A stretch of 64,000 nt of DNA from the NCBI RefSeq assembly GCF_011745625.1, contig NW_027191456.1, positions 744,001-808,000 on the forward strand. Reading direction: 5' to 3'. Positions 877-11,480 of the stretch are shown here, piece after piece. Source of the stretch: Cladosporium halotolerans (lineage: Eukaryota). Position 1 is the stretch's first letter. The number at the start of each line of letters is the position of its first letter. The notes below the pieces were generated by a model that was not told the DNA's origin, did no database searches, and saw only the letters and a program-made list of their open reading frames with translations. Both the position numbers and the translations under genes were made by a program.

Positions 877-3322
877 TCATCTGCCTGGTACAGTAAAGCT
901 TGTCGAAAGCATTGTCCTCGAAAGGCTGGGTGTGGCGTTTGCTGAGGCAGAAGTCAGACGAGACGATATGGGAGGTGAGGACGCCAACGCCAGCGCCATG
1001 CTCTGAGAAATGGTGTCCTCCGTGCCAATGCACACCGGGCGAGAGATGTTAGCAGGAAGATTGGCGTAAAGATTTGACTCGCAGTCTCCCTCAAGCCATG
1101 GATTCCAGCGGTTCAGATCATCGAGGGTGATGTCAGCGTCCTGGATTAAGTCGCCGCAACTGTAGTCTGTGGAATCTGACCTCAGCATGCTGCAGGTAAT
1201 ATATCTTATGCTCATACAGAGACCTACCGTGCTTCCCGCCAACATCGTACCATATGGCTGTAAAACAGATACAACGTTCATCCGTGCCTGGAACAATGTT
1301 CCTGTTATCTGTCGAATCACAAAGCGTGTCTGGCTGGGGAGCTGAGAACCGTTAGCATTCCCTATTGTCACTATGCGGCTCAGAAGCCCCTCTTGACCCA
1401 CCGTCTATATGGATCAGCTCCACACAGTAACGGAACCCTGGATCAGCCTGACAATCGGTCAAGTTGCGCGACAAGCTAGGGTTCCACTGTAGCAGCTGCT
1501 CGGTCGTGATCTGATAGTTGAATGCTATTTGTTCGCAGTCCCTTCCGCGAGCATCGTCAAAAGTTTCATATGTGTCACATTCTTGCTTCGTTCCAGGTGC
1601 TCTCGGTAGTGACGAAGCGGGAGCGGTGAATAGGAAACCTGGGTCATTTGTCTTTGTTGCTACAGTGGCGTTGAGAGTCGGGAAAGTCGCTGGAGGCACG
1701 GTAATTCTTGCACTTCCTCGAGACCTCGGATATCCGACGTAAGTAGCTATGTCTCCGATAGGCGCAACACAGTAAGCCAGACCGAGCACGAGGTTGGTGC
1801 AGTCTTTATCGACGGTGGGATTGAGGAAGAGAAAGTCGGACAAGGATATGCCGCGAGCCATAGTCACCTTGCTACAAGTGTCGCCCTCGACGATCTGGAG
1901 AGGAGTGGTGTCAGCAGAAGCATTAAGAGAGACCGCCGGTATAAGCGAACATACATTATACCACTTCCCGCAAGTCTTATTCGATTCGTCAGGTGCATTC
2001 GTGGGTCTTGACAAGACCGAGCTAGGCGTTGGAGAAGAGACAGAAGTAGTACTATCATTATCGATTGAGGGGCCCTGTGGTGCAGTCGCTGGGGGTCTAG
2101 TAATTAGTGTCAGCTTTAAATCTGCTGCAAATGTTTGAGCGGTACACGCGCACCCTATGCAGAAGTTGTAGCCAATGAAGTTGACAGCATTCTGACAAAG
2201 CGAGTTCAGATTTGGGTTCCACGAAATGAATCGAGGTATGGATACACCGTCCAGGGTGGATACAATGCTCGCACAGGTATCTGTCGGTCGCCAGGCGTGG
2301 ATCTCGCATTTAGGAGGCGGACACAGTCTGGAGCCTACCGTAGATGCGAAGTTCTGGCAGTAGATGTCGAGGTTGTTGTGATATAGCAAGTTGTACGTCG
2401 AAACGTTCATGGCCGAGGATAATGAGATGCAATTGTCACTTTCCAAGACTTCGTAAGAGCCCGAGCAGTTCTATGTGTTGCAGTCAGCAAATGAGTTGAG
2501 TCATATGCTGTCAACTCTTTCCTACATACCTTGTTAGGGATATCAATGGGGCCAGGGCCAGTCGTGTTCGTAGGCGTTAGCTCGTATGGGGCCGGTTTTG
2601 ACCAAGCGTAAGTTGAGGAGTTGCATGTTTCCTCGAGAGAAGTGAAAGCATCCGCCAGACTATCGTCATACCCAAAGGGACTGTTAAGACGCATCGATAA
2701 GCTTCCCAGATAGCAATCCGAGCATCTTTGCGTCGTATTCAACCTCAACTCGGACCATGCAAGTAGCTGTGGATCGCAGTAGTCCCCCGTGAAGCTGTTT
2801 TTAGAAATGTTAGCTTATCAACAGACAGTGATGTAACCGAAGGCCTCAAACCTGTCTTTTCGGCATGATACGTTGTATGTGTGAAGATAGGTGTCCACAA
2901 AAAATGTAGCTATCGAACATGTCAGAATGACCAAGTAGCGTAGGTTTCGAAACCCTCAACTCACCAGGGTAGCTCAAACCATTCAGAGTCACCGTGTCAG
3001 TCTTTTGCTGACAAGCGTTCTCGATAGTGGACTTTGCTTGCTGGAGTGATTTCATACAATCTCCCACACATACGGCGTTGATACTCTCTTCGTCGAGGAA
3101 GTTGCCACTATGCTCGATTAGCTGTGAGTTGAATTTCGTCACGTTGAGGCAAGGTTACCGCTGGCTCAAAGAGTAGAGCTTGTAATGACAAGAGACACTA
3201 GCGTTAAGCGCTGCGCGGCAAGACGTGCTGATGTTGGGATAGTTGAAGGATAAGGAGGCTCCTTGGAGCTGCTGGGATTGCGCGAATGATGCGCAGGCTA
3301 CAAGCCAAGCTAGTACTTGCAT
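877..3322 (-). CDS. Secreted multi-LysM (CBM50) protein, about five fungal-type LysM domains, multi-exon
   Basis: Signal peptide MQVLAWLVACASFAQS from ATG 3322. Splicing at GT-AG sites joins ORF fragments 2846-3142, 2407-2748, 1352-2446 and 877-1401. LysM signatures: ESDNCISLS..NNL, TDTCASIV..FISWNPNL, EGDTCSKV..FLFLNPTV, DCEQIA..LLQWNPSL, SCGDLI..LNRWNPWL. Confidence 0.9.
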
Positions 3323-3700: not shown

Positions 3701-6700
3701 ATGCCGCCACGGCAGCTTTTCCTCATGGCGAAGTGGCTCACTGGAATCGTGTTGTTCACTGCAGTTGTGATCCTCCTCCACGGAACATCGCGTCCTATCA
3801 CGAGCATCAACGCCAAGGGTTCCCAGAATCAACAGCTCTCAGTTCAGACCAACAAGTATCAACCTGAATCTTTCAATGAACTACTGTTCCCAAGAGACGA
3901 TTCGACTTGCGGCCCTAAGAAGCCATGCAGTAACCACGCATGCTGTGGGCCCGAAGGCTTTTGCGGATTTGGCCCCAGTTACTGTGGTAAAGGGTGTACT
4001 TCAAATTGTGATGCTCACGCAGAGTGTGGCGAGTTTGCTCAACAGCCGAACGATACTTGTCCTTTGAACATCTGGTGGGTACATCGAGTCCGAAACGGAG
4101 TGGTAGGTTGTCGGTTTACCAACACTAACGCTTTGGTAGCTGTAGCGAGTTCGGGTTCTGTGGAACCAGCGAAGACTTTTGTACTGGCAAGTGTCAGTCA
4201 AATTGCGTACTTGCACCAAAGCCTCCTCAAGAATTCTCACGCCTTTCCATCCTCGAAAACAGAGTCATCGGTTACTACGAGTCGTGGAGTGCCCGCAAGG
4301 AATGCCACAAAGTTGCGCCAACGAACTTACCTCTTGATGCCTTGACACACGTCAACTTCGCCTTCGCCTATATCGATCCAACGTCGTACGAAATCGTGAC
4401 GATGGATTCATCAACTCCCTCAAGCTTGTTCCAGGACACCGTGGACATCAAGATTATCAAGCCCGACATCGAAGTCTGGTTGAGCATTGGCGGATGGACA
4501 TTCTCTGACAATGATACCATCACCCAACCAATATTCGGCAACATTGCCTCGACTGCCTCTAGAAGAAAGCGTTTCGCAGAGAATCTAGTCGCGTTTCTAA
4601 GAGACCACGGCTTTGACGGAGTCGACATTGATTGGGAATACCCTGGCGCTCCGGACCGCGGAGGGAGGCCTGAGGACACTGACAACTTTGTCAAGCTAAT
4701 CCAGGCCATACGGAAAGCTTTCGATAAGAGTGGCAGTCGTTTAGGACTGACGTTCACTGCGCCCTCTTCGTACTGGTACCTTCGCTGGTTCGATCTTGCC
4801 AGCCTTGTGGCGCATGTAGATTGGATCAACCTGATGACCTATGACCTCCACGGCATATGGGACTCTGACAACTCGATTGGTAGTCAAGTGCAAGCCCACA
4901 CAAACCTGACCGAGATCAAGTCAGCAGTCGAATTGTTCTGGCGCGCGAAAATTCCACCAAGCAAGCTCGTGTTGGGGTTCGGGTTTTATGGGAGATCGTT
5001 TACCTTGTCAAACCCATCGTGCACGGAGCCGGGCTGTCCTTTTAGCGGTGCCTTAGATCCTGGACCATGTACGGATGAAGGAGGCATACTTGGATTCTAC
5101 GAGATTGAAGAGATTCTCAAACAAGCGAAAGGCCAAGGGAAAAGCGGCGGCATCGACATCATCCACGATAAAGCCAGCGCTGTTAAATATTTCGTGTTCG
5201 ATCATGATCAGTGGGTTTCGTACGATGACAAGGATACTTTCAAGCAGAAAGTCGAATGGGCAAACGACATTGGATTTGGCGGTGCCATGATCTGGGCTTC
5301 CGACTTGGACGATGATACTTACACTGCTCACTCAGCACTCTTAGGGCGCGATGTCCGGCCAACTCCTGAACTTCCGCTCCAAGAAGAGATCGTGGTGGCT
5401 CCTCAAGCTGTCATTACACAACTTTCGAGCTTTAACGGCCAGAACTGCTTTGCGTATCAGGATGATTGTGTGGATCTGGACGACAACAGTGCCGTACAGG
5501 CCGCCTGCGGAGATGGGTATACACCAATTGGGTGGGACGATGCTAAATGCGGTAAAAAGAATTGCCATTGCGGCAAGCCGATCTGCTGTCCGATAAACGA
5601 GGCTCCCAAAGGTTGTATTTGGCGAGGGCAAAAGACTGGAAAAGGCACAGGGACCGACTGTAACGCTCAATGCGATAAAGGAGAAATCAATGTCCAGGCT
5701 ATCCTTTCCTCTTGGGGAGGCGGATATCTGAATGATGGCGACACCAACAAGTGCGGACGGGGTGCTAAAGCTTTCTGTTGCCCGGTTCCGTCCGTGAACC
5801 TTACGCTGGGCGGATGTCAATGGAGTGCCTGCAGGGCGGACTGCCCTGACGGAAAGCATTCTGTACTCGAAAAGTTGGACGACTGCAACATTGGCCAGCA
5901 AAAGTTCTGTTGCAACAGCCCAGTCCCTGGATATCCTCCCGTGCTTTCTGATTGTTACTGGAACAATGGGGAAGGAGGCCTGGATTGTGCAAATGCAGTC
6001 TGCAATCCAAAAGAGCTCGAAGTTGACAGAGCAGTGTTCGGCGGCTCGAAGAACGGCGGCTGCAGTTGGGGTCGTCAGAAAGCGGCATGCTGTATCCTCA
6101 ACCGTGCTCCACCACCGCCGCTCTTCTGCCATCGCGAGAGACGCCCCGCATTTCCTGCAGAGATCGAGGTTTTCGAGAGACCAAACAATGTACGCCTTGA
6201 TACCAACATCATGTTGTCGAACGGGAGGCTCTTGACCATCATCACGGCCAACTACCCCGCAATCAGAGATCTTTTCACCGCTCCCAATTCTTCTCAGGTA
6301 TCTCGACAGCTCTTCCGGCTGATCTCAGCCTATTGCACCGGCTCAGGACTCTTGGTACAACAATTGCCTTCAATTTTCACTAATCTGGTGGGCCTACACA
6401 CCGAGCATCCACTCGATAAGCAGATCGGAGAGCTATTTGTGGAAGCCATGGCTTCAGGCCGCCTCAGGAATAAGCTTTCTCTCTTGGGGCCGATATCACA
6501 TATTCTTTTCGAACGCTGGCATGAGGTCATTCCGGCCCTTGGAACCAAGCCCGCCATCGGTGGGTCCAATGGACCGCGTCCCGGTACTATTAACGACAGG
6601 TTCTTTTTTGCCTTCGGCGGAGACGGCTACTTGCGCCCCTTCCTCGCGACTGATGCTATACTCAACGGAGCCAAGGGCAAGTTGATGGAACTGGCATCGC

Positions 6701-7152
6701 CGAGGGCTATCAAAAAGATCACACAACTCGCGCGAGCGGCTGTTGCATCGGACACTACGGCAGCAGCCGAAGAACTGCTAGGTGAGATAAAAATCGGACC
6801 CACCCTCTTTGAGTATTTCAACAACGATCACTTTGCGGAGCGCTTGAATATGGTGCTGGAAGAAGTGTATACTCAACTCGAACACGTTGAGGAAGTCTTG
6901 GGCATATCAAACATCAGTCAATGGTGGTTCAATTTCATCGAAGACTATCTTGCACAGATCGAGGAACACGCTCAATGGTGGTTTGGCGAAGCCATCGCGG
7001 CGGCGATCTTACCGTACCAGGAAGCAGCAGACAGAGGTCGTAACCTTGCAACACGTCAACAAGTCGAGGCCGTGTTACAAGCCTGGGATCAACTCCCAAA
7101 GCTAACTTTCCCACCACGAAACTGGTGGACTGCCGACAAACGTCGGGTATGA
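3701..7152 (+). CDS. Subgroup C (killer-toxin-like) GH18 chitinase: N-terminal hydrophobic segment, two CBM18/hevein domains, GH18, Cys-rich repeats and an unknown C-terminal domain
   Basis: Hevein motifs CSNHACCGPEGFCGFGPSYC and CPLNICCSEFGFCG, the second restored by intron 4075-4139 (GTGGGT..CTAAC..TAG). GH18 motifs LTHVNFAFA, LSIGGW, intact catalytic FDGVDIDWEYP, MTYDLHG and GAMIWASD. The start could alternatively be ATG 3725. Confidence 0.93.
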
Positions 7153-7633
7153 TCTTCTAGAACGACTGCACGCCAGAGCACCGGGCAACCGGCCAGCCAC
7201 CAAAGTCTTCAGGTTCAGGCTGCCAGCAAAGAGCTCCCTCAAAAGTCCAGTTGAGATGTCAGTGCGCCAGACACGGCTTCATTAATGCATGAGAGCATTA
7301 CAGGCGTTTGTCTTCTGTTTTTCTTGCCCAGTTCTTAGTATAATGTCTGATAGCCAATCCATCTAATCGACTCTGAAACATTTGGCCAGCTCTTCGCGCT
7401 GCCTCTTGGGATCGACGGTTGGCACGTCCCTCTCTCGGGCCTTAGGGTATTGTCCTTCGTTAAAACAATTTCATTCATTTTCGCATTTGGTATCATCACT
7501 TCTATAACAAAGAAAACCCCATCATCATCATCATCACCACCCCAATTTCTTTTCCCATCCCCTCCTCGTCTCCAAGGGCAGCGAAACTCCGTCCAACCCA
7601 CCCCGCCACCTCTTTCCTTTCAACACCCCCCGC

Positions 7634-10231
7634 TCACTCCTTCGTACAAATCCAAGTACTAGCATACATATTGACCCGATCCGTACACTCGCCGACCCTC
7701 TCCCTGCTCGCGACCCTCTTCGCCGCGAAACCGCCCTGCTCAAAAACGCCCACGTACCAGGGCCTCAGCCCCGCGCTCCGGAGCAGCACGCGGCCACCCT
7801 TCTTCAGCGCGCGCCGCACGGCGGCGACTTGCGCGGGGGCGTCGGGCGCGCCGGGCGTGAACCAGTCCATGCTGTCCATGAGGACGGCGATGGTGAGGCT
7901 GTCGGGCTGCATGCGGGCGAAGACGTCGGCGAGGGAGTCGGTGTGGATGCGGAGGTTGGAGAGCGGGGAGGAGGGCGAGGTGGGGTGCGCGGAGAGGCGG
8001 GCGTGCGAGTGCGGGGTGAGGTAGGTTGGGTGGCAGGCGGGGGTGTAGTGGCCTGGGAAGGCAGGGTCAGTATGGGGGATGTGGGATTTTTCTTTTTCGG
8101 TTTTCCTTTTGGGGAAGGGGAAGGGGATGCACGTACCGAGAAGGCAGACGAGGTAGTAGTGGTTGTCCTCGCTGACGAGCGTCTGGTCCACGACGGGGTC
8201 GAGGGTCTGCACGCCGTAGTTCCAGATCGCCTGGCCGGACTTGGTGGCGCTGACGGGCCCCGCGGAGCCGTCGCCCGAGGGCTTCTGTGCGGCGGCCTTG
8301 ACGTCGCCGCTGTCGCCCATGCGCTTGAAGTCCTCCTCGATCATGGCGCGCTGCTCGCTGGGGACGCCGAGGGCCTTCCAAAGGAAGCGCTCGGAGCCGA
8401 TGACGAAGTAGGCGAGGAGGCGGGAGAGGAGGACGCGGCGGACGCGCTTGGTCCAGATCTCGCGCTGCTCGGCGAGGGTCTGCGCGGAGGCGAGCTGCAG
8501 CATGTCTTTGCGGATGCCGAGGAGTTTGCCGAGCCATTGGACGAGCTGGAGGGCGTGGCGGGAGCCGCCGGTGGAGTAGAGGCCTTTGCCCTTGGGGGAG
8601 AAGGTGGCGGGGCCGGCGTGGAGCCAGTAGTCGAAGGCCTGGCTGGAGAGGTGGGGGGAGAGGCGCTGGACGAGGAGTTCCTGGAACTTTTCGTGTTTGC
8701 CCTCGCCGAAGATCTTCCACATGTCTTGGTATTCGAGGCCGCGGTAGGCTGCGACCTTGAGTTCGAGGAGGTGGTTCTGCGCGGGGTTGAGGTCGACGGC
8801 GTGGATGCGCTTGGGGCGTTCGAGGGCGTAGGACAGGATGTTGTCGCCTGCGCTGGTGATGGCAAGAATAACGTCGTCGGATGTGATCTTGAGCAGGCGA
8901 GAGTCGACTCGAGAATCTTCCCAGGTGAAGGCGTAGATGTACTCGTCGTTGAATTGGCGGTGCTTTTGTAGGCTCTCATCATAGTAGATGCGGGTCTTGT
9001 TGTTCTGGTAGTAGGCTGCCGGGAGAGGGAGAGAAGCAGCCAGGTTGACGACGGCGGACTCGTAGGCTTTGCTGTGGCGCTCTGACAGAGCAGAATCGCG
9101 GCGCGGCTGGGGCTTGTTAAGAGACTTGGAGTGGACGTCCAGAGCGGAAATGAACGGGCTCTCCGTCACATCAGCGTCGAGTGCGGCAAGCTGCTGCATG
9201 CTGGAGCTAGTCTCGCGAGCACAGCCGACGAAAATGTAGTAGGGAATGCGGAAGCCGAACAGACGGCACCTGCGGTTGGTGCTAAGAATGGTGCCAAACT
9301 TGTACTCGATGTAGTCGCGTCTTGCCGAGTCCAAGTTGACACGGTCGAGCTCGAACCAGGTCCTCCAGAAAACGCGGGAAATCCACATGCAATGCCTGTC
9401 GATCGCTCCGCCCATGTAGTTGCGGCTCTGGAACTCGATCTGGTTCTGGACGTAGAAATCGACGACGCCGACAATGCCGCTGGTCGCGAGGAGGTTGCAC
9501 GCGCTGTCAATCGCCGGGTGGAACTCGGGGATCATGCTCAGGCTGTAGGACATGGTGAGGACGTCGGCTCCGACGGAATCACGTGCACTGTCTTCGTAGG
9601 CGGACTTTCCAATGCTGAACTGTGCCTTGTCGTCGTCGACGCCGACCTCGTAGTCGGAAAGTCTGAAACGGCGGGCGTCCTGGCAGACGACGTGGACGTT
9701 CTTCCAACCCAGGCGCTGGAAGCGCTGGCGCGCGACCTCACAAAGCGAAGTGCTCAGGTCGACGAGGTAGACGGCGTGGAAGAAGTCGGGCACGTCGAGG
9801 TAGTGCTGCATCTGCTCGATGTTCCAGCCGGTGCCGCCGCCGATGTCCACCCAGATGGGCTTGGGCGACATCTGGCCCGTCTTCAGCCTGTGCTTGGCCT
9901 GCGCGGCGACGAGCGCGAGCATGTCCTCGCGGCCCTGCAGCAGCCTCGTCCTGGTGGCATCGTAGATGGAGGCCTGGGCCTTGTAGAAGCTCTCGAGGGC
10001 GTCCTGCTGGCTGCCGCTGCCGTCGCCGGAGTGCGGCTTGAGGAAGCAGTTGTAGGCGAATTTGGAGTACTGGGTCCAGGCGTTGTAGGACTTGCGGAGC
10101 AGGCTGACTTCGGTGAAGGAGAAGATCACGTAGGAGGCGATGATGAGCACGAGGATGACGGAGGCGAGGCTGACCTGCGCCAGAGGCTCGGTGAGGGCGT
10201 GGTAGAAGGCGCCCAGGTCGAGGGTGGCCAT
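7634..10231 (-). CDS. BTA1: Betaine lipid (DGTS) synthase, fused BtaB-like methyltransferase plus BtaA-like 3-amino-3-carboxypropyl transferase
   Basis: N-terminal TM segment. Motifs QQDALESFYKAQA..YDATR, WVDIGGGTG (SAM binding), YIYAFTWED, ITSAGDN, AVDLNPAQNHLLELK, MDSMDWF and C-terminal DRVNMYAS. One intron at 8053-8136. Confidence 0.9.
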   Translation of the reverse strand: MATLDLGAFYHALTEPLAQVSLASVILVLIIASYVIFSFTEVSLLRKSYNAWTQYSKFAYNCFLKPHSGDGSGSQQDALESFYKAQASIYDATRTRLLQGREDMLALVAAQAKHRLKTGQMSPKPIWVDIGGGTGWNIEQMQHYLDVPDFFHAVYLVDLSTSLCEVARQRFQRLGWKNVHVVCQDARRFRLSDYEVGVDDDKAQFSIGKSAYEDSARDSVGADVLTMSYSLSMIPEFHPAIDSACNLLATSGIVGVVDFYVQNQIEFQSRNYMGGAIDRHCMWISRVFWRTWFELDRVNLDSARRDYIEYKFGTILSTNRRCRLFGFRIPYYIFVGCARETSSSMQQLAALDADVTESPFISALDVHSKSLNKPQPRRDSALSERHSKAYESAVVNLAASLPLPAAYYQNNKTRIYYDESLQKHRQFNDEYIYAFTWEDSRVDSRLLKITSDDVILAITSAGDNILSYALERPKRIHAVDLNPAQNHLLELKVAAYRGLEYQDMWKIFGEGKHEKFQELLVQRLSPHLSSQAFDYWLHAGPATFSPKGKGLYSTGGSRHALQLVQWLGKLLGIRKDMLQLASAQTLAEQREIWTKRVRRVLLSRLLAYFVIGSERFLWKALGVPSEQRAMIEEDFKRMGDSGDVKAAAQKPSGDGSAGPVSATKSGQAIWNYGVQTLDPVVDQTLVSEDNHYYLVCLLGTCIPFPFPKRKTEKEKSHIPHTDPAFPGHYTPACHPTYLTPHSHARLSAHPTSPSSPLSNLRIHTDSLADVFARMQPDSLTIAVLMDSMDWFTPGAPDAPAQVAAVRRALKKGGRVLLRSAGLRPWYVGVFEQGGFAAKRVASRERVGECTDRVNMYASTWICTKE

Positions 10232-11480
10232 GTTTAGAGGGGTAGCTGCCCAGCTCAGGTGCTGGATGAAGGGGAGAGGTCGAGAGGCGTGAGCGGGACG
10301 GGATGGGATGTAGGAGGCGGAGGAGCACAAGGAGGGAAGGAAGCAAGGGAGGAAAAGGCAACAGACCTCGAGCAGGCAGGAGGCCAGACACTTTATCGGC
10401 TGGCACGAAGGCCAGCTACGCCTCGACAGCACTCTCAACAAAACGCCGAACGGCTCGCCAGAGACGTCGTCTGGTGCCGATCGCGCAGCACGCGCGCCGC
10501 CAGCACGCATGACATCGCCGCCCGGGGCGCGCGACTCGACCCCACGGCGACGATGGGCTGAACCCCGCCAGGCGCAGAGGGCGAGGGATGCGGTATGCGG
10601 TATGGCAGGCAGAGGCATCGGCGGCCTATCAGCACGCCCACATGCCGCCGCACGCCGTCGCTGCCTCGACCCTGGGCGTGCCTGAGCCCGCACCGCGCGA
10701 GCCATCCCGCCGAGCGGACGCTCCCGACGAGGCCTGAGGGTGCTAAGGGCGCTGCGAACGCGCGGGCCAGACACGGACGAGACAGCTTGCCGTAGCGCGT
10801 GGGCCTCTCACGAGCGCGCAGGGCGGCCACGAGCAGCAGCCATAGGGGGATGGAGGGGCAGAGGGCAGAGGGCGCTGGGGGATGTGGGAGGGCTGCGTGT
10901 GGAGTGCTGCACGCAAGCCGACGGGCCCGCGCTAGCCCCGCGAGCCAATCGCCGCGGGGCATGAGCGGGCGTGCTGGACCTCACTTGCTGTCGCGCGCTC
11001 TGCCAGGAGGGCGCTCATGGGCGGTGTTTTGCCGGCGAGCCAGCAGAGTTTTGGCTCGTCGTATCGGTGGAATTGCATCTGGGTTATTCTCGGGTGCAGC
11101 AGGGTCGAAAGAGGTGAAGAGTTCCAATGCTGGGTCAGGGTCGTGGACGAGCGGCTCTTCGTCTTGAGACCCTGCACCTGGGCCGGGCTGCGCTGCTCCG
11201 GAGGTACCTGAGCAGCTATTTCCCCTCTGCCCCTTTGCTTTCTGCAATGCAAGACGCAGGAACAGGAACAGTACACACATCCGCCACTACAGCCTATCCC
11301 TGCACTCTCGATTGACAATTGTAACAACATGATGTAAGTTATCAAGCTTTTTCAGCAATTATCGTATGAATATCAGATTAGACCCGCTCATGCCCGCCAT
11401 GCTGAAGTTGCTCATTATACATAACCGCCCCACCTCCTCCGCATGCCTCAGGAGATCTCCGGAATGACGAGGCGCATCGC

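Follow-up and report, generated by a model that had tools for sequence, protein, structure and literature searches.

The 64,000-nucleotide stretch analyzed here (hereafter the window) comprises positions 744,001 to 808,000 of the forward strand of contig NW_027191456.1 in the Cladosporium halotolerans assembly GCF_011745625.1, and contains a chitinase gene in which positions 6133-7152 encode the last 339 residues of the product. This C-terminal tail is best read as a module of a "killer-toxin-like" chitinase of the subgroup C-I type, in which two chitin-binding CBM18 modules precede a GH18 catalytic domain and LysM is absent, and which carries the module as a fixed part across the Pezizomycotina. 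In the composite reading that we favor, and to which we assign a probability of about 45%, the tail would be a processed, enzymatic module delivered by the chitinase to which it is attached. Group C chitinases have borne the label killer-toxin-like for twenty years; only C-II chitinases have recently been tied to real toxins, encoded as separate ribonuclease genes beside the chitinase gene. The initial annotation of the region had envisaged a single-chain fungal polymorphic toxin with a cleavable, nuclease-like payload, a reading that, taken as a whole, is partly supported by the analyses reported here.

The fixed nature of the tail emerges from the comparison of chitinase homologues. A search with the GH18 domain and the Cys-rich region that follows it (residues 150-790) yielded 1965 matches at E <= 1e-3 among 8000 candidates scored, and the homologue counts given below rest on the best 120 of these 1965 matches, which show 44-63% identity, all lack LysM and span the Eurotiomycetes, Sordariomycetes, Dothideomycetes, Leotiomycetes and lichen fungi. 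Scanning them with a profile of the tail detects the domain at E < 1e-5 in 112 of the 120; the remaining eight are only 655-857 amino acids (aa) long and extend 3-106 residues beyond the query-aligned part, and are for these reasons taken to be short or partial models. The pairwise identities of GH18 and tail vary together (rho 0.82 in a Mantel test on the 50 proteins with both parts complete, a value matched by none of 999 permutations), and the nearest neighbor of a protein by GH18 lies within its top three neighbors by tail in 43 of those 50. The tail nevertheless diverges at about twice the rate of GH18: the median identity to the window protein is 63% for GH18, 52% for the Cys-rich region and 33% for the tail, the last being the lowest value in 45 of 45 proteins. 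Given its presence in 112 of 120 homologues and its co-divergence with GH18, the tail is not a variable tip, and we regard it as almost certain that it is a fixed, conserved domain of these chitinases.

These results bear directly on the notion of a polymorphic toxin, with a swappable toxic tip borne by a chitin-targeting part that is itself conserved. In favor of such a toxin, the domain boundary shows a basic site for processing and a sharp shift in composition, and the tail evolves faster than the other parts of the protein. However, a homologous domain is present in all but the eight short or partial homologues, the distances computed from tail and GH18 are congruent and no immunity gene is seen adjacent to the chitinase gene. 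The initial annotation had itself named invariant C-termini among homologues as the outcome that would speak against its proposal, and the comparison revealed precisely that, with no swapping of C-termini. A polymorphic toxin is thus a very improbable explanation for this region.

Relatives of the tail were also sought independently of the chitinase, with phmmer run exhaustively against 1.84 billion cluster representatives at E <= 1e-3. This search recovered 125 relatives, 44 of them at E <= 1e-10, while word-indexed protein searches with the tail matched only the window's own protein. Many of the relatives are exon-sized fragments on short contigs, with match boundaries that cluster at shared profile positions, and all those that carry a name belong to the Pezizomycotina (Aspergillus, Beauveria, Rhynchosporium, Fusarium, Cercophora, Apiospora, Cercospora, Lojkania and Pyrenula). 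Bacterial relatives were found in none of five and, subsequently, in one of 401 Actinomycetota genomes; this lone match has an E-value of 0.003 per genome, covers 46 positions and contains three stop codons, and was treated as a chance match on account of its weak E-value, short coverage and stop codons. In a protein atlas, one cluster of Actinomycetota proteins scores 0.89. The tail defines an unnamed family that is apparently restricted to fungi. The module is separable from the chitinase, as judged from sequence, for a few secreted proteins without a chitinase carry it as well: in P0115 of Lojkania enalia (CC78DRAFT_543121, 832 aa), which lacks GH18, a signal peptide and a different Cys-containing N-terminal part precede LEKRG, after which come the domain and finally a Lys-rich tail, and in P0116 of Cercospora beticola (CB0940_10340, 391 aa) a hydrophobic N-terminus is followed by IVERG and the domain.

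A small set of mostly polar residues is near-invariant within the domain, and these are numbered here within the 339-residue tail (C68 corresponds to C857 of the recorded protein, P0004). Rows of the tail family and rows of chitinase homologues were counted separately, and row totals vary by position. The near-invariant residues, all of them in the alpha/beta lobe described below, are the following:

6334-6336, plus strand: C68, in 43 of 44 tail-family rows and 103 of 104 chitinase homologues
6403-6408, plus strand: E91-H92, with E91 in 51 of 52 and 104 of 108, and H92 in 52 of 52 and 105 of 108, respectively
6598-6600, plus strand: R156, in 74 of 80 and 102 of 110
6616-6618, plus strand: G162, in 87 of 88 and 109 of 110
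6664-6666, plus strand: N178, in 86 of 87 and 110 of 110
6673-6675, plus strand: K181, in 86 of 87 and 110 of 110

In these alignments the EH and NxxK motifs constitute a signature of the family, far above chance. Both had been singled out in the initial annotation and both read as it described them: LHTEHPLDKQ places EH at 6403-6408, FLATDAILNGAKG contains N178 and K181, and the distance from EH to the Asn, given there as about 85 residues, is 86. Its description of the tail as nearly Cys-free is equally accurate, C68 being the only Cys among the last 339 residues, as opposed to 47 Cys upstream of the tail.

The His motif occurs in two forms. The ordinary one, EHP[IL]D.Q, is found in the usual chitinase fusions, including the window protein, and the other, EH[IV].ELQT, in long-form chitinases and in proteins without GH18 (seen in P0115, P0116, P0110, P0129 and P0077). 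The long-form proteins P0129, P0198, P0250 and P0252 (1476-1612 aa) and the fragment P0110 harbor about 500-600 additional residues that follow the Cys-rich region and precede the tail; the stretch looks beta-rich, and a Pfam scan of P0129 and P0110 matched it to no family.

Proteolytic processing is suggested by the sequence that precedes the domain. In the alignments of most homologues, L-E-K-R-[GA] appears shortly before the first strand of the domain, and site distances were therefore measured from a conserved YP anchor (Y41) in 94 homologues. A dibasic site with its P1 residue 15-30 residues before Y41 is present in 63 of the 94, and the bin 20-24 residues upstream of Y41 accounts for 58 of the dibasic sites counted; by comparison, [KR]R occurs in 5.4% of 17-residue slots drawn at random from other parts of these proteins. 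The fuller pattern [LIVF]x[KR]R occupies the main slot in 53 of 94 homologues, and a monobasic xxR[GA] is found in 10 of the remainder. A second dibasic peak, KR or RR and often xKRD, lies 35-44 residues upstream of the anchor. The RERR that the initial annotation had read at 6133-6144 is indeed encoded there and, at 37 residues before Y41, corresponds to this second-peak site, whereas the main LEKR slot is occupied in the window protein by FER, 24 residues before Y41. The existence of two conserved basic sites suggests two cuts, by which a short acidic spacer would be excised at both ends. Across the family, proteolytic separation of the tail seems on balance probable. For the window protein, the proposed Kex2 processing can be retained only in part: the Kex2-type site is conserved at the boundary in the family, but Pro occupies P1' of both RERR and FER, and Pro at P1' is unfavorable for kexin-type proteases. 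Because of the Pro after both basic sites, cleavage is less certain here than in the relatives, and separation of the tail in this particular protein must be put at somewhat under even odds.

The organization of the tail was predicted with AlphaFold2 (AF2). Modeled as a whole with the family alignment, the tail attains a predicted local distance difference test score (pLDDT) of 91.6 and a predicted template modeling score (pTM) of 0.88, with residues 1-11 disordered, an alpha/beta lobe at 20-190 and a bundle of long helices at 193-319. The N-terminal lobe folded alone adopts the same secondary structure (pLDDT 90.4, pTM 0.80). The two lobes differ in charge, the isoelectric point (pI) being 9.6 for the N lobe (family median 9.3) and 4.4 for the helical lobe (family median 5.1). 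According to these models, the tail folds autonomously into two lobes over about 310 residues, with the basic alpha/beta lobe lying against the acidic bundle of helices, an arrangement that bears out the earlier description of a distinct domain that follows a dibasic site and ends in a helical tail, the basic linker before it being predicted to be disordered. Its parts are encoded as follows:

6133-6189, plus strand: disordered linker with the basic sites RERR (6133-6144) and FER (6175-6183) and Pro after each (AF2 pLDDT below 50 for residues 1-11 and 61 for residues 11-20)
6190-6702, plus strand: basic alpha/beta lobe (AF2 models, conservation, pI 9.6)
6709-7092, plus strand: acidic helical bundle lobe, with predicted helices 193-206, 209-229, 232-256, 261-300 and 308-319 (AF2)
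7150-7152, plus strand: stop codon, the translated protein ending in ...ADKRRV

The invariant polar residues are suggestive of an active site, and we consider the domain to be probably catalytic on the strength of its conservation pattern. Regarding chemistry, a nuclease related to the His-Me finger (HNH) group appears to be the single most likely candidate, even though, judged on sequence and models together, it is itself somewhat doubtful. In the AF2 model H92 closes a strand (88-91) and N178 and K181 lie in the first turn of a helix (175-185) that comes right after another strand (171-174), an order of strands and helix that is compatible with the beta-beta-alpha-metal motif. E91 directly precedes H92 at the predicted strand end, like the [DE]-H of His-Me fingers, N-x-x-K-[GS] opens a helix after a strand, as it does in those enzymes, and the lobe bearing both is basic. 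When residues 12-192 were compared with the protein atlas, the nearest named clusters were all of HNH type (GmrSD_C 0.79, DUF1524 0.78, GH-E 0.77, GmrSD_C/HNH_4 0.76 and AHH 0.75), with scores of 0.75-0.79 that fall within the range attained by shuffled sequences; these families came up in another comparison with the atlas as well. Alignments of GmrSD_C (PF07510) and HNH_4 (PF13395) built from Actinomycetota genomes display the pattern [DE]H ... N-L ... N-x-x-K-[GS], the two Asn being separated by 7-9 residues. In the tail family P169 stands 9 residues before N178, so that the slot of the middle Asn lies as far from the helix Asn as in GmrSD_C/DUF1524 and HNH_4. The best segment found by hhalign places P169...N178xxK181 on N...NxxK in an identical register against both families, at insignificant probabilities (0.78%, P 0.07, for GmrSD_C, and 0.34%, P 0.17, for HNH_4) and in matches that largely repeat the NxxK motif and hence depend on the motif itself.

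A number of further results count against a nuclease. The middle Asn of the HNH motif, which the initial annotation had already found not to be evident, is replaced by Pro in 71 of 88 family members, and the His-Me reading requires an insertion of 77 residues within the hairpin, where it would separate the His strand from the second one. To our knowledge, the His-to-Asn spacing of 86 residues exceeds that of any HNH family. The tail also differs from His-Me fingers in having no zinc-binding cysteines and in belonging to a secreted, fungal family. Comparison of the tail model with Foldseek, as the initial annotation had advised, and with VIA-align gave no match to solved or viral structures. 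Searches of Pfam and NCBIfam at E <= 10 over 20 members produced no recurring family; the best match of the tail in a PDB sequence search had an E-value of 0.45, among unrelated proteins, and a PDB profile search reached at best an E-value of 0.44, to TetR-type regulators on the helical edge. The N lobe has, in short, no relative recognizable by the structure and sequence tools used. As for the HNH proposal, the near-invariant EH and NxxK do stand, and are placed in the predicted secondary structure as in a His-Me finger, whereas a beta-beta-alpha-metal fold or a match to an HNH family was not obtained. Should a toxic or antifungal role fail, the tail would still represent a new domain family, probably with a new fold.

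Other chemistries were considered. A papain-like Cys-His-Asn triad formed by C68, H92 and N178 was set aside as less likely, as C68 lies in an inter-strand loop instead of at a helix start and N178 is helical, and readings as an ADP-ribosyltransferase (R-S-E) or a lipase (GxSxG) were rejected on the spacing of these motifs.

If the favored reading of a delivered enzymatic module is correct, the precursor would enter the secretory pathway, where a Kex2-type protease might cut the disordered linker at the conserved basic sites, and the lone conserved Cys could keep the resulting fragment tethered by a disulfide to the chitinase part. The chitin-binding and GH18 part would then carry the module to chitin walls, where it might act as an enzyme with an active site composed of E91-H92, R156 and N178-x-x-K181; its chemistry could be that of a metal-dependent phosphodiesterase (nuclease) resembling a His-Me finger, though very divergent and with the 77-residue insertion in its hairpin. 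The disulfide is hinted at by the Cys count, as the odd number upstream (47) and the single Cys of the tail make an even total. Two findings detract from this scheme: Cys parity is noisy, with an even total in 15 of the 22 most complete models counted by hand, and no immunity-like gene was seen adjoining the chitinase gene, where no search with immunity profiles was made.

A more specific version of the scheme can be framed by reference to zymocin. The alpha and beta chains of this toxin are products of a single GH18 precursor that binds chitin, and a disulfide joins beta to a separately encoded gamma ribonuclease (bioRxiv 10.1101/2024.10.25.620242; PMC13442484). The chitinases of the nuclear toxin clusters in filamentous fungi belong to subgroup C-II and have LysM, and no such cluster was reported from Dothideomycetes (Heneghan, Salzberg and Wolfe, bioRxiv 10.1101/2024.10.25.620242); the same preprint locates the Cys that forms the chitinase-gamma disulfide of C-II near the chitinase C-terminus. 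The window protein resembles these systems in combining a chitin-binding module with GH18; the zymocin precursor is cut in the secretory pathway into an N-terminal chitinase chain and a C-terminal one of about 30 kDa, and a comparable cut is predicted here from the dibasic site of the family (63 of 94, against a background of 5.4%). Participation in antagonism between fungi has been proposed for both. The two differ in that the window protein has neither LysM nor a Cys near its C-terminus (none of 51 homologues has one in the last 15 residues), that its tail possesses catalytic-looking invariant residues of its own, and that no gamma-toxin or immunity gene was recognized in the part of the locus seen, for which no search with such profiles was made. 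C-I chitinases might be single-chain counterparts of zymocin, with a payload in cis consisting of a highly divergent His-Me nuclease lobe that would be restrained by the acidic bundle, released by Kex2, tethered by Cys and delivered to chitin-walled competitors. We deem this elaborated form unlikely; if true, it would explain the absence of a toxin gene beside C-I genes and would make a fungus-wide family of antifungal toxins directly testable. The arrangement of a putatively catalytic, basic lobe next to an acidic bundle is reminiscent of a colicin-type nuclease complexed with its acidic, helical immunity protein. Bacterial polymorphic and colicin-type nuclease toxins likewise join a targeting part through a processing site to an enzyme-like domain at the C-terminus; unlike them, the tail is not exchanged among relatives, has no separate immunity gene recognized beside it and bears its acidic helices in the same chain.

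Zymocin also offers a different model, in which the tail would be the counterpart of the beta chain, that is, a processed, non-catalytic subunit for delivery or uptake that is Cys-linked to a separately encoded toxin and aids membrane crossing. The common origin of alpha and beta from a GH18 precursor, the conserved Kex2-type site before the tail, the lone near-invariant Cys and the presence of a LysM-only neighbor gene, as in toxin clusters, are all congruent with this model. On the other hand, the toxin clusters belong to LysM-bearing C-II chitinases and were not reported from the Dothideomycetes in the preprint cited above, the window chitinase is devoid of LysM, the zymocin-type beta-gamma bond uses a Cys near the chitinase C-terminus that none of the 51 homologues possesses, and a catalytic role suits the invariant E-H, R and NxxK better than a structural one. 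A beta-like subunit consequently seems an unlikely solution. A slightly better case, albeit still a doubtful one, can be made for a non-toxic accessory enzyme or binding module engaged in cell-wall work (remodeling, autolysis or nutrition), which would act on another wall or membrane target beside chitin and would not enter a target cell. Vertical inheritance in 112 of the best 120 homologues with a rho of 0.82 is what one would expect of such a module, no immunity-like neighbor is seen, the searches gave no match to a nuclease fold or family, and many hydrolytic chemistries could make use of the invariant E-H, R, N and K. However, the domain is also found on P0115 and P0116, secreted proteins without any carbohydrate-active domain, a divergence about twice that of GH18 (33% versus 63% identity, in 45 of 45 proteins) suits a changing target better than housekeeping, and the nearest named atlas clusters are nucleases and not glycosidases.

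With respect to the known C-I chitinases, defined as high-molecular-weight secreted proteins with chitin-binding type 1 modules and GH18 but no LysM (Karlsson and Stenlid 2008, PMC2614207), the window protein looks like an ordinary member, with CBM18, GH18, no LysM and an adjoining LysM-only gene; the assignment follows from its domain structure and its LysM-free homologues. The pairing of a chitinase gene with a LysM-only gene has been described for group C chitinase loci (bioRxiv 10.1101/2024.10.25.620242). New relative to existing C-I descriptions is the recognition of the roughly 340 residues after the Cys-rich region as a defined domain that is conserved, looks like an enzyme and comes with a processing site conserved in turn. 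In the literature within reach, group C proteins are described only by CBM18 or LysM plus GH18, and no description of the C-terminal domain appears in the full texts searched, a coverage outside of which key reviews fall. An unnamed, confidently folded domain with E-H, R and N-x-x-K behind a conserved protease site provides a concrete object for testing and, if it proves to be a toxin or an antifungal enzyme, would constitute a widespread weapon in fungal competition and a candidate for biocontrol studies.

The gene itself, read from the DNA, consists of positions 3701-4074 and 4140-7152 on the plus strand, separated by a single intron of 65 nucleotides, and its spliced product is identical to the recorded C. 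halotolerans protein WHR41_02173 (P0004, 1128 aa); the plus-strand frame at 4342-7152 is open over 936 codons. From N- to C-terminus, a hydrophobic start is followed by two CBM18-like Cys knots, GH18, a Cys-rich region of about 230 residues, the basic linker and the one-Cys tail domain. The parts upstream of the tail are encoded as follows:

3701-4074, plus strand: exon 1, with the start codon, a hydrophobic signal peptide or anchor, the first CBM18 and the first half of the second (from the DNA; splicing gives P0004)
3908-4009, plus strand: first CBM18 (Pfam Chitin_bind_1, residues 105-138 of P0003, E 2.5e-5)
4075-4139, plus strand: intron GTGGGT ... CTAAC ... TAG, removal of which reproduces P0004
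4258-5310, plus strand: GH18 catalytic domain with DGVDIDWEYP (PF00704, E 4.3e-70, residues 1-323 of P0002)
5446-6129, plus strand: Cys-rich region with 28 Cys (residues 561-788 of P0004, from Cys positions; median identity to homologues 52%)

The DxxDxDxE motif of GH18 is thus present as DGVDIDWEYP. The Chitin_bind_1 match on the exon-1 frame scores 24.9 bits, under the cut-off of 27.8, and PF00187 is among the precomputed domains of P0004; a second CBM18 in the N-terminal part is inferred from the Cys pattern only. No LysM is detected in the chitinase, either in the Pfam scan or among the precomputed domains of P0004, which are PF00704 and PF00187 only, and the tail matches no Pfam family.

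Two genes flank the chitinase gene, both on the opposite strand:

877-3322 (limits approximate), minus strand: multi-exon gene for a secreted LysM protein, divergent from the chitinase (open reading frames; Pfam LysM, E 1.3e-8 and 5.7e-8)
7634-10774, minus strand: frame of 1046 aa with DUF3419 and an S-adenosylmethionine-dependent methyltransferase domain (DUF3419, E 2.9e-147)

The LysM gene has a signal-peptide-like start at 3322, and its LysM matches lie in the frame at 1352-2446. Downstream of the chitinase, the gap at 7153-7633 holds only an 88-aa frame with a GTG start on the opposite strand. The pair of DUF3419 and methyltransferase at 7634-10774 resembles what we take to be a betaine-lipid synthase, and the G+C content rises from about 0.50 over the chitinase gene to 0.60-0.73 over the DUF3419 gene.

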